A stretch of DNA of 64,000 nucleotides, taken from Candidatus Woesebacteria bacterium RIFCSPLOWO2_01_FULL_39_23. GTDB lineage: Bacteria > Patescibacteriota > Microgenomatia > UBA8517. The stretch covers positions 8,647-72,646 of the forward strand of contig MGHG01000012.1 of assembly GCA_001793095.1 (NCBI GenBank). The letters are read 5' to 3'. How positions within the stretch are numbered: position 1 is the first letter of the stretch; the number at the start of each line of letters is the position of its first letter. This document shows, piece by piece, positions 63,001-64,000 of the stretch. Made by a program: the position numbers.

Positions 63001-64000
63001 TGGAGGTATTTTGGGAGCCGATGCTAAATGCCAAACACTCGCTTCCGCCGCTGGTCTTCAGGGCGAGTATAGGTCATGGGTATCAACAAACACAATAAAT
63101 GCGAAAGACAGGATACCTGACGCAAAGTTTGTTTTAGTTGACGGAGCAACAATTGTGGCAGACAACAAAGCAGATTTAATAGATGGCGCAATTGATAATA
63201 GTATTAATAAGGATGAAGGGGGAGTAGTAAGGTCAGGTAGAGTGTTTACAGGAACCCGGGAAGACGGAACCAAACACACAAATACCTGCAACAATTGGAC
63301 TGATGGAAGCTCTGGTTATACGTATCGCTTCGGAAATACGACCTATACTAATACCTACTGGACGTCGGGAGGAAATGTTTCCTGCAACCAGACAGGTCGG
63401 CTTTACTGTTTCCAAACGACTCAGTATATTGTTCCCTCCCCACCACCGCCTACACCGACTTCTCTTCCAACGCCAACACCTAATTATACTGTGGTAGGGA
63501 ATTACCAATCAGGCAGCAATTGCAATACTTTATGTTCTAATAATGGAAAATCATGCACTTCGGTAGGAACCGATACCTATGGCACGAACTTACTCTATGC
63601 CTATTGGTCCGGAACGTATTGTAGCTACCCTTCGGCAAGTTGCTCGACAGTCATGACAAATGAGGCGGTGGTGGACTGCGGCGGTCACTCTCCACTGTGG
63701 ACTAACTGCCGGTGTATTAACCCCAGCCCGACGCCAACGCCTACGAAAATACCAATATAAATATGAAAAATTATTTTAATTTCAGAAAGATAATAAAATA
63801 TATCTTGCCGGTAATATTAATAATAGGATTAGTTGCGGGGGTTATCCTCGTTCAGCAAAAACAACTCTTCAGAAAAAGAGCTGCAAACTTTCCTGCAACT
63901 TCACTCTATTATATTCATTCAGATAACCTGGGTAGTACAAGTATGGTAACTGACGACACAGGTACTGTAGTTTCAAGACAAACATATTATCCGTATGGAA

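Follow-up and report, generated by a model that had tools for sequence, protein, structure and literature searches.

A split RHS polymorphic-toxin system in Woesebacteria and other Microgenomates: core-less shell genes followed by separate core-toxin genes

The prevailing view is that an RHS/YD cocoon folds around the toxin at its own C-terminus, and that the core region is a covalently attached seal. What are we to make of a locus in which shell and core are encoded by two genes? The locus lies at the end of a 64,000-nucleotide (nt) stretch of Candidatus Woesebacteria bacterium RIFCSPLOWO2_01_FULL_39_23 (contig MGHG01000012.1), which was analyzed at its full length and is referred to here as the window. 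A giant gene encodes a membrane-anchored YD/RHS shell protein of 2191 amino acids (aa), and a second open reading frame (ORF2) opens just behind it with a transmembrane (TM) helix and continues into an RHS core. A sequence-only reading of the window had raised three scenarios for this arrangement: a cassette insertion, an 'orphan' core-toxin module, or a two-component system resembling the Tc toxins. We find that the giant gene and ORF2 are a split RHS polymorphic-toxin system conserved in the Microgenomates, within the candidate phyla radiation (CPR). The architecture is a real and conserved variant of the RHS/Tc-like polymorphic toxins, and we infer from it how the two products may work together.

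The shell gene and the core-toxin gene

The new ORF announced by the sequence-only reading is present 2 nt after the giant's TAA, in a different frame, and its translation is exactly the string reported there (coordinates in Table 1). The ORF2 frame contains a stop at position 63718, 15 codons 5' of the ATG, and the frame of the giant meets many stops past its TAA; a plausible fusion can therefore come neither from read-through nor from one insertion or deletion. The last 16,816 nt of the window, which include the junction, are matched without a single mismatch by L001 (Logan SRR3989430) and L002 (ENA ERZ27254843), two independently assembled contigs retrieved by exact-sequence look-up of the giant protein, which is indexed in 53 blocks of the sequence collection. 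This comparison of assemblies brought to light no frameshift or misassembly. We rejected a fusion by read-through or frameshifting, given these stops and a TM helix that would land in the middle of the protein, and misassembly is ruled out by the identical independent assemblies together with the conservation of the split across species. ORF2 is a genuine gene, translated separately. Its automatic gene call begins at a TTG (63805); we prefer the ATG at 63763 as the probable start, because it supplies a basic n-region and because the same geometry of a stop, 2 nt and a start occurs in a Gottesmanbacteria orthologue. The 2-nt spacing suggests that the two genes may be translationally coupled.

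The giant has the repeats of an RHS shell and lacks the core. Pfam RHS_repeat matches it in five stretches (E=2.7e-26) and TIGR01643 matches it with E=1.2e-17; no match is observed to the TIGR03696 core at E<=0.1 or to a core hidden Markov model (HMM) built for the family. Across all six frames of the window, the latter model finds ORF2 as the sole core-like sequence. The RHS-homologous region (aa 539-1788, by alignment to a fused orthologue, L011) is about 1250 aa in length, which corresponds to a long shell. Besides RHS_repeat, Pfam reports on the giant just DUF1554 and a weak DUF6443, with no TcB-type beta-propeller or SpvB domain. The N-terminal cleavage motif PVxxxxGE was not found in the giant, and a phmmer comparison of the giant with the PDB gave no matches. 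A homologue search with the shell end returned generic RHS fragments of at most 830 aa: repeat words saturated the candidates and the giant itself was missed. Orthologous giants carry N-terminal helices equivalent to the predicted anchor of the window protein.

The full ORF2, read in L001 (16579-17877), encodes 431 aa. Its N-terminus consists of a basic n-region, MKNYFNFRKIIKY, a hydrophobic segment, ILPVILIIGLVAGVILV, and then QQKQLFRKRAANFPATS, so that basic residues flank the helix on both sides. A separate membrane anchor or signal had been anticipated for the second gene, and this helix answers to it. The core follows, reading LYYIHSDNLGS...NNNPINSTDPTG and then R, and ends in PxxxxDPTG-R. 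TIGR03696 (Rhs_assc_core, NCBIfam) matches aa 75-149 with 76.1 bits (cut-off 32.5; E=2.3e-21), which places shell and core/toxin in two adjacent genes, as had been suggested. The part visible in the window, aa 48-79 (LYYIHSDNLGS...YYPYG), had been called the canonical opening of the core. This holds in so far as it aligns to TccC3 and to the family HMM; the segment lies just upstream of the formal TIGR03696 match.

Among PDB chains, the best alignments of ORF2 aa 46-150 are to the conserved C-terminal region of TccC3 and YenC2 (E~1e-14), and they end at the DPDG-L cleavage motif of these proteins. In the TccC3 alignment, FTQAD of ORF2 stands opposite LSSDP, and DPTG opposite DPDG; we take the two aspartates of ORF2 to occupy the positions of TccC3 D651 and D674. 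Core residues D78, P94, D99, P100 and G102 are invariant in alignments of both 18 and 47 relatives. The DPxGL ending that had been expected is replaced by DPxG-R in ORF2 (R at aa 150, L001 ~17026). At the position that follows PxxxxDPxG, 81 relatives have N (39), H (23), Y (6), R (4), K (3) or other residues, and W, L and F do not occur. The consensus of RHS autoproteases is PxxxxDPxG followed by W, L or F (PMC8765631).

Downstream of the core, the extension provided by L001 and L002 contains the variable C-terminal domain that the window cuts off, 281 aa in length. An HEYLH sequence in this tip is conserved as HExxH in 8 relatives sharing it, and the tip is presumably a zinc metallopeptidase, judging from this motif. 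Used alone as a query, the tip retrieves just 3 close relatives. Between DPxG and the HExxH region, we also observed a conserved, partly hydrophobic, Cys-containing segment (aa ~150-260, L001 17029-17360) with the pattern C.PW.P.CW ... DPEGF ... APQ ... GPQAAEALD.TLCA...DPG.C...AQA.GPNV. It is present in proteins P0003-P0008 and is common to products with different distal ends; possibly it is a pre-toxin or translocation module.

An AlphaFold2 (AF2) model of ORF2 computed from a 47-sequence alignment was poor (predicted local distance difference test, pLDDT, 58; predicted template modelling score 0.28), with pLDDT 41-46 for the core in isolation, and a Foldseek search of this low-confidence model against the PDB gave no match at E<=0.001. 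That a strongly conserved core should model so poorly on its own fits a need for the shell, as weak evidence.

Table 1. Positions in the window of the giant gene, ORF2 and their parts
Feature	Position	Strand	Description
Giant gene	57185..63760	+	2191 aa; membrane-anchored YD/RHS shell protein, no core, no toxin tip; ORF and domain searches
N-terminal TM anchor/signal of giant (predicted)	57317..57373	+	aa ~45-63, VKAIFVLAFFLFSIVSLWS, RKIFKRKS just before; read from translation
Last two YD repeats of shell	62381..62548	+	aa 1733-1788, IYDAGGQRIAK...WRKNYFFSGKLAAVRVSES; core expected directly after
Non-RHS C-terminal extension of giant	62549..63757	+	Pro/Thr linkers, Cys-rich module 1, DUF1554/endostatin-like domain, Cys-rich module 2
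Cys-rich module 1	~62570-62855	+	giant aa ~1795-1890
DUF1554/endostatin-like domain	62981-63343	+	aa 1933-2053; Pfam DUF1554 E=1.1e-10; weak NCBIfam LenA/LenB-like match
Cys-rich module 2	63449-63715	+	giant aa 2089-2177
Junction TAA-AT-ATG	63758..63765	+	giant stop (63758-63760), 2-nt spacer, ORF2 start in another frame
ORF2, first 79 codons	63763..64000	+	full gene 431 aa in L001
ORF2 TM/signal helix (predicted)	63799..63852	+	aa 13-30, ILPVILIIGLVAGVILV; hydropathy 3.27; AF2 helix pLDDT ~91
Opening strands of RHS C-terminal plug/autoprotease region	63904..63999	+	aa 48-79, LYYIHSDNLGSTSMVTDDTGTVVSRQTYYPYG; family HMM 49 bits on window fragment; aligns to TccC3

Recurrence of the split and a fused orthologue

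Is this a peculiarity of one genome? A database search with ORF2 returned 343 relatives at E <= 0.001. Of the 343, the best ~88 are, with few exceptions, just 300-500 aa in length and belong to Microgenomates, among them Woese-, Ames-, Gottesman- and Roizmanbacteria; we refer to these short core-toxin proteins as cartridges. For most of the 120 matches listed, similarity is limited to the core, that is, 24-35% of ORF2. Cores are ~70% identical among relatives, divergence begins directly after DP(S/T)G and the C-termini are unrelated; the median tip, at 260 aa, compares in size with a Tc cargo. A conserved N-terminal/processing region is thus joined to hypervariable C-terminal domains, as in polymorphic toxins. 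Pfam searches of 47 cartridges gave scattered single matches, and the relatives' tips include VanY, GDSL lipase, C39-like peptidase and transglutaminase-like domains. A hydrophobic N-terminal signal segment is found in 79 of the 85 core-containing relatives, typically followed by A-x-A|ETLYYIHQDHLGS (for example, A-x-A|ETLYY); the other six look truncated or mis-started. In 23 of 79 relatives, two YD repeats stand between the signal peptide and the core. We call this form type B, and the form with the core alone, as in ORF2, type A.

Matches in other phyla are mostly ordinary fused RHS proteins. Short core ORFs retrieved from Chloroflexi, Nitrospira and Scalindua with the same probe lack a signal peptide, and their reading frames open within YD repeats; these are classical orphans. 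Outside the CPR, we also noted signal-peptide-like short core-toxin ORFs in Omnitrophota (L035 9836-13133, L040 9830-11215) and Verrucomicrobia (L063 3196-4074), and the combination of a signal peptide with an RHS core may therefore be wider than the Microgenomates. Several third-party metagenome-assembled genome records labelled Gammaproteobacteria or Pseudomonadales (L016, L011, L017 and L026) encode proteins identical or near-identical to Microgenomates cartridges, and the signal peptide in L016 is the same as in Roizmanbacteria L015; these taxonomic labels look unreliable.

Genomic context was inspected in eleven further loci. A core-less giant followed by one to five cartridges was observed in at least seven species (L003/L013, L007/L008, L009, L010, L028, L005/L014 and L086). 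The giants measure 1467-2279 aa and are 42-47% identical to the window giant over more than 1000 aa (29-34% for L028). In Gottesmanbacteria (L003/L013), the arrangement is again a stop, 2 nt and a start (L003 stop 8434, start 8437), with two cartridges. Microgenomates GWC1_37_8 (L007/L008) has four. Of two Amesbacteria loci, L009 shows a giant ending in ...NYYFSGKLVAVRKK at its stop codon, a 4-nt overlap and three cartridges, and L010 has a core-less giant and then cartridges. The divergent lineage L028 has a giant with the same shell end, ...NYYADGKLVAVR. In the Woesebacteria loci L005/L014 and L086, which are of type B, the giant ends ~65 aa earlier (...TYDADNRL plus linkers), and the cartridges bear a signal peptide, then the two YD repeats missing from the giant (FLYDGSGQRIYKG...NYYFSGKLVAVKDN), then the core.

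The comparison of fused and split versions proposed by the sequence-only reading yielded both. A fused orthologue of 1966 aa, 42-45% identical to the giants, is encoded in L011 (5201-11101) and reads ...NFSFLGNLSAVRIGQAGSESKSFIHSDHLGS...; over a longer stretch, ...WRRNFSFLGNLSAVRIGQAGSESKSFIHSDHLGS...DPTGH.... The last two YD repeats of the window giant are homologous to aa 1536-1594 of this protein, where they lead straight into the core. The window shell ends in ...NYFFSGKLAAVRVSES, exactly where L011 continues into SFIHSDHLGS...; the linker that joins the last shell repeat to the core is thus the precise place of the break. Breakpoints of giants and cartridges are complementary. Insertions are also observed at the type-B site in L011 and L028 and at the type-A site in P0002, so both sites are permissive loops. 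Conservation of the split further speaks against a recent cassette insertion.

In the window, ~400 aa of non-RHS domains plus the TM helix of ORF2 separate the shell end from the core. The Cys-rich module of this extension (~90 aa, pattern C..C...G..C..VGTD ... WT.C.C, without a Pfam family) occurs in two copies in the giant. It recurs at the C-terminal ends of the L005, L086 and L028 giants and in 286-340-aa TM proteins of type-B loci; a role in adhesion or binding is possible.

Proposed assembly from two chains and its alternatives

How could a shell without a seal and a seal without a shell function? Solved structures offer a reference: the conserved C-terminal region of RHS proteins spirals into the cocoon and seals it, and the two chains TcB and TcC together make up a single cocoon (PMC8765631). 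This region is an aspartyl autoprotease in RhsA and the Tc toxins (PMC8765631; bioRxiv 10.1101/2024.02.26.582050). By analogy, we give slightly better than even chances to an RHS system of two chains: Sec would export both shell and cartridge, the core would dock into the open shell and shut the toxin inside, and cartridges would be interchangeable. Both chains would leave the cell unfolded. Outside, the strands of the cartridge core, a strand spiral that would seal the cocoon and bear the aspartyl autoprotease, would extend the beta-spiral of the giant and plug it around the toxin tip, to give a two-chain cocoon analogous to TcB/TcC. The conserved Asp pair would then cleave at PxxxxDPxG. One shell could be loaded with any of several alternative cartridges, and the external Cys-rich/lectin-like domains of the giant would bind the target (host) cell. 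The strict conservation of the core, the maintenance of a core-less shell in many species, the type-A/B complementarity and the poor model of the isolated core all support a two-chain system, and among the three scenarios raised at the outset the Tc-like one fits best, given the split in at least seven species, the complementary breakpoints and the fused orthologue.

The closest parallel is provided by the Tc BC pairs (TcdB2-TccC3 and YenB-YenC2). There too, the second chain bears the conserved C-terminal core/aspartyl autoprotease and a hypervariable toxin (~30 kDa), and several alternative C subunits serve one B, as several cartridges accompany one giant here. Tc cocoons are built from two polypeptides, as we propose here. 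The present system differs in that both chains have predicted Sec signals or anchors, no TcA, beta-propeller or SpvB was found, and the residue after DPxG is not L. Single-chain RHS/WapA proteins (RhsA of P. protegens, Tse5 and B. subtilis WapA) share the YD shell, the PxxxxDPxG core and the variable toxin. WapA-type proteins use Sec-dependent export, as we propose here on the basis of the N-terminal segments, and the family includes the fused L011 protein. Here, by contrast, shell and core/toxin are in separate genes: a stop codon closes the shell gene, and the core is read in another frame from a new start that is followed by a TM helix. There is no PAAR/VgrG/type VI secretion context, no PVxxxxGE motif and no cognate immunity gene beside the toxin. 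The Pfam TEN_YD-shell family (PF25023), named after the teneurins, is a precomputed match on ORF2 and relatives. In teneurins, as in RHS proteins, a conserved C-terminal region plugs the shell; they differ in being single-chain proteins of eukaryotes whose plug stays uncleaved and whose toxin-like domain is external, and there is no evidence of close kinship. Full-text searches of the literature on RHS in CPR/Patescibacteria or on split shell/core genes found no description of this architecture.

Several observations weigh against assembly from two chains. The case for interaction, export and cleavage is indirect. Complementary breakpoints are also left by any gene fission and do not prove function. 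Threading a ~30-kDa toxin in trans into an essentially complete shell is without known precedent. In Tc toxins a large part of the wall comes from each of the two chains, with ~570 aa from TcC, whereas the second chain here brings just the core of ~100 aa in type A, to which type B adds two YD repeats. After the hydrophobic region of ORF2, no obvious AxA cleavage site is seen, and its helix may be an uncleaved anchor. Without W, L or F behind DPxG, cleavage may differ or be absent. The 281-aa tip of ORF2 has no Pfam or NCBIfam match and no fold match. Finally, the cartridge arrays of L018, L026, L032 and L024 have no YD giant within 10 kb upstream; adjacency is thus not obligatory, and cartridges may work alone.

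This last point leads to the strongest alternative, namely that cartridges are stand-alone secreted toxins. The short proteins would act by themselves after Sec export, the giant would be an independent surface adhesin and a neighbour by descent, and the ~100-aa core would be vestigial or a self-sufficient leader, autoprotease or adhesion piece. Each cartridge does have its own signal peptide, many tips resemble extracellular enzymes, and the arrays without a nearby giant, like the signal-peptide and core ORFs of Omnitrophota and Verrucomicrobia, speak for this alternative. We nevertheless regard it as unlikely, though by no means negligible. The core is an integral cocoon seal in every solved RHS protein (PMC8765631), it models poorly in isolation, and its ~70% identity across phylum-level lineages argues for a constrained partner. 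Furthermore, type-B cartridges retain two shell repeats lost from their giants, and an unplugged shell would have been kept in at least seven species without obvious use.

Orphan rhs-CT modules are defined by the absence of N-terminal trafficking modules and by a partner immunity gene, and they rely on homology to the core of the main gene for recombination (PMC4436062). If ORF2 were such a cassette, it would be kept silent in reserve until recombination with the 3' end of the main rhs gene swapped the toxin tips. Like the orphan rhs-CT/immunity modules of E. coli, Salmonella and Serratia, which are short ORFs after a large rhs gene, often in arrays, with a start in the core or close to it and one of several toxin tips at the end, ORF2 lies immediately 3' of a large rhs-type gene, and the cartridges form arrays of alternative tips with a common conserved 5' region. 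True signal-less orphans are also among the matches to our probe, in the Chloroflexi, Nitrospira and Scalindua loci. However, ORF2 begins with a start codon of its own and a conserved signal peptide, no immunity ORF adjoins it, contrary to the definition in PMC4436062, and the main gene has no core sequence with which to recombine. This makes the orphan scenario of the sequence-only reading improbable.

That a single fused RHS gene was broken by error or recent inactivating mutation, or is read by programmed frameshifting, could be suspected from a junction of just 2 nt with a frame change, but is most improbable given the identical assemblies and 53 indexed blocks, the stops in both frames, the ~400 aa of non-RHS sequence and TM helix that intervene, and the persistence of the split in many species with different junction sequences.

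Neighbouring genes and implications for CPR bacteria

An immunity gene next to the toxin had been expected, and none is present. Downstream of ORF2 in L001, no ORF of 50 aa or more is found on the + strand before a pair of genes encoding DUF6922 and AbiEii (a type IV toxin-antitoxin nucleotidyltransferase). Cartridges in arrays are nearly contiguous, with ~85 nt between successive ones in L087, and a TcA-like gene was not seen among the called neighbours. The DUF6922/AbiEii pair recurs inside or at the end of cartridge arrays in several species (L001 18085-18968, L007 11740-12629, L087 4473-5410, L088 5927-6864). Also located between cartridges are HicAB (L007 6563-7034), MNT/HepT (L005 11466-12103) and genes for AAA_14/DUF4143 ATPases. 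In L001, an ORF of 223 aa (19080-19751) between AbiEii and nusA has no Pfam or NCBIfam match and is a candidate for a distant or unrecognised immunity gene. A promoter and terminator scan gave counts at chance level; the sole convincing intrinsic terminator (L001 19868-19892) follows this 223-aa gene.

Elsewhere in the window, a 1401-aa UvrD/AddA-type helicase-nuclease (26352-30557, + strand; UvrD-helicase, UvrD_C and PDDEXK_1) contains an intein (Intein_splicing/Hint, aa ~291-655), and a further very large protein, on the surface or secreted, is a 1745-aa alpha-2-macroglobulin-like product (14397-19637, - strand; A2M, MG2, A2M_BRD and Big_5). An Rfam search of the window found nothing.

In conflicts between species, effector-like systems are on record that resemble polymorphic toxins and are devoid of immunity genes (PMC3482391). 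By analogy, the absence of adjacent immunity genes would fit a host-directed role in episymbiotic CPR bacteria, and it suggests that the toxins act on targets absent from the producer. We may go one step further and propose, tentatively and at somewhat less than even chances, that episymbiotic Microgenomates build a cocoon after export from an anchored, adhesion-decorated shell and any of several plug-toxin cartridges, aimed at host or neighbour cells, with no immunity genes and possibly with an Asn/His cleavage chemistry.

A conserved seal and toxin on a separate exported chain would mean either that a cocoon receives its seal and cargo in trans, outside the cell, or that the core works without a shell. 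Either meaning would change our understanding of RHS encapsulation. The two-gene layout would also suggest a naturally modular delivery scaffold, and it comes with a large set of uncharacterized toxin tips without immunity partners. For CPR bacteria, whose means of attacking or exploiting their hosts are largely unknown, the system is a candidate host-interaction weapon: if the two-chain reading is true, one launcher with many warheads, turned against host or neighbour cells.

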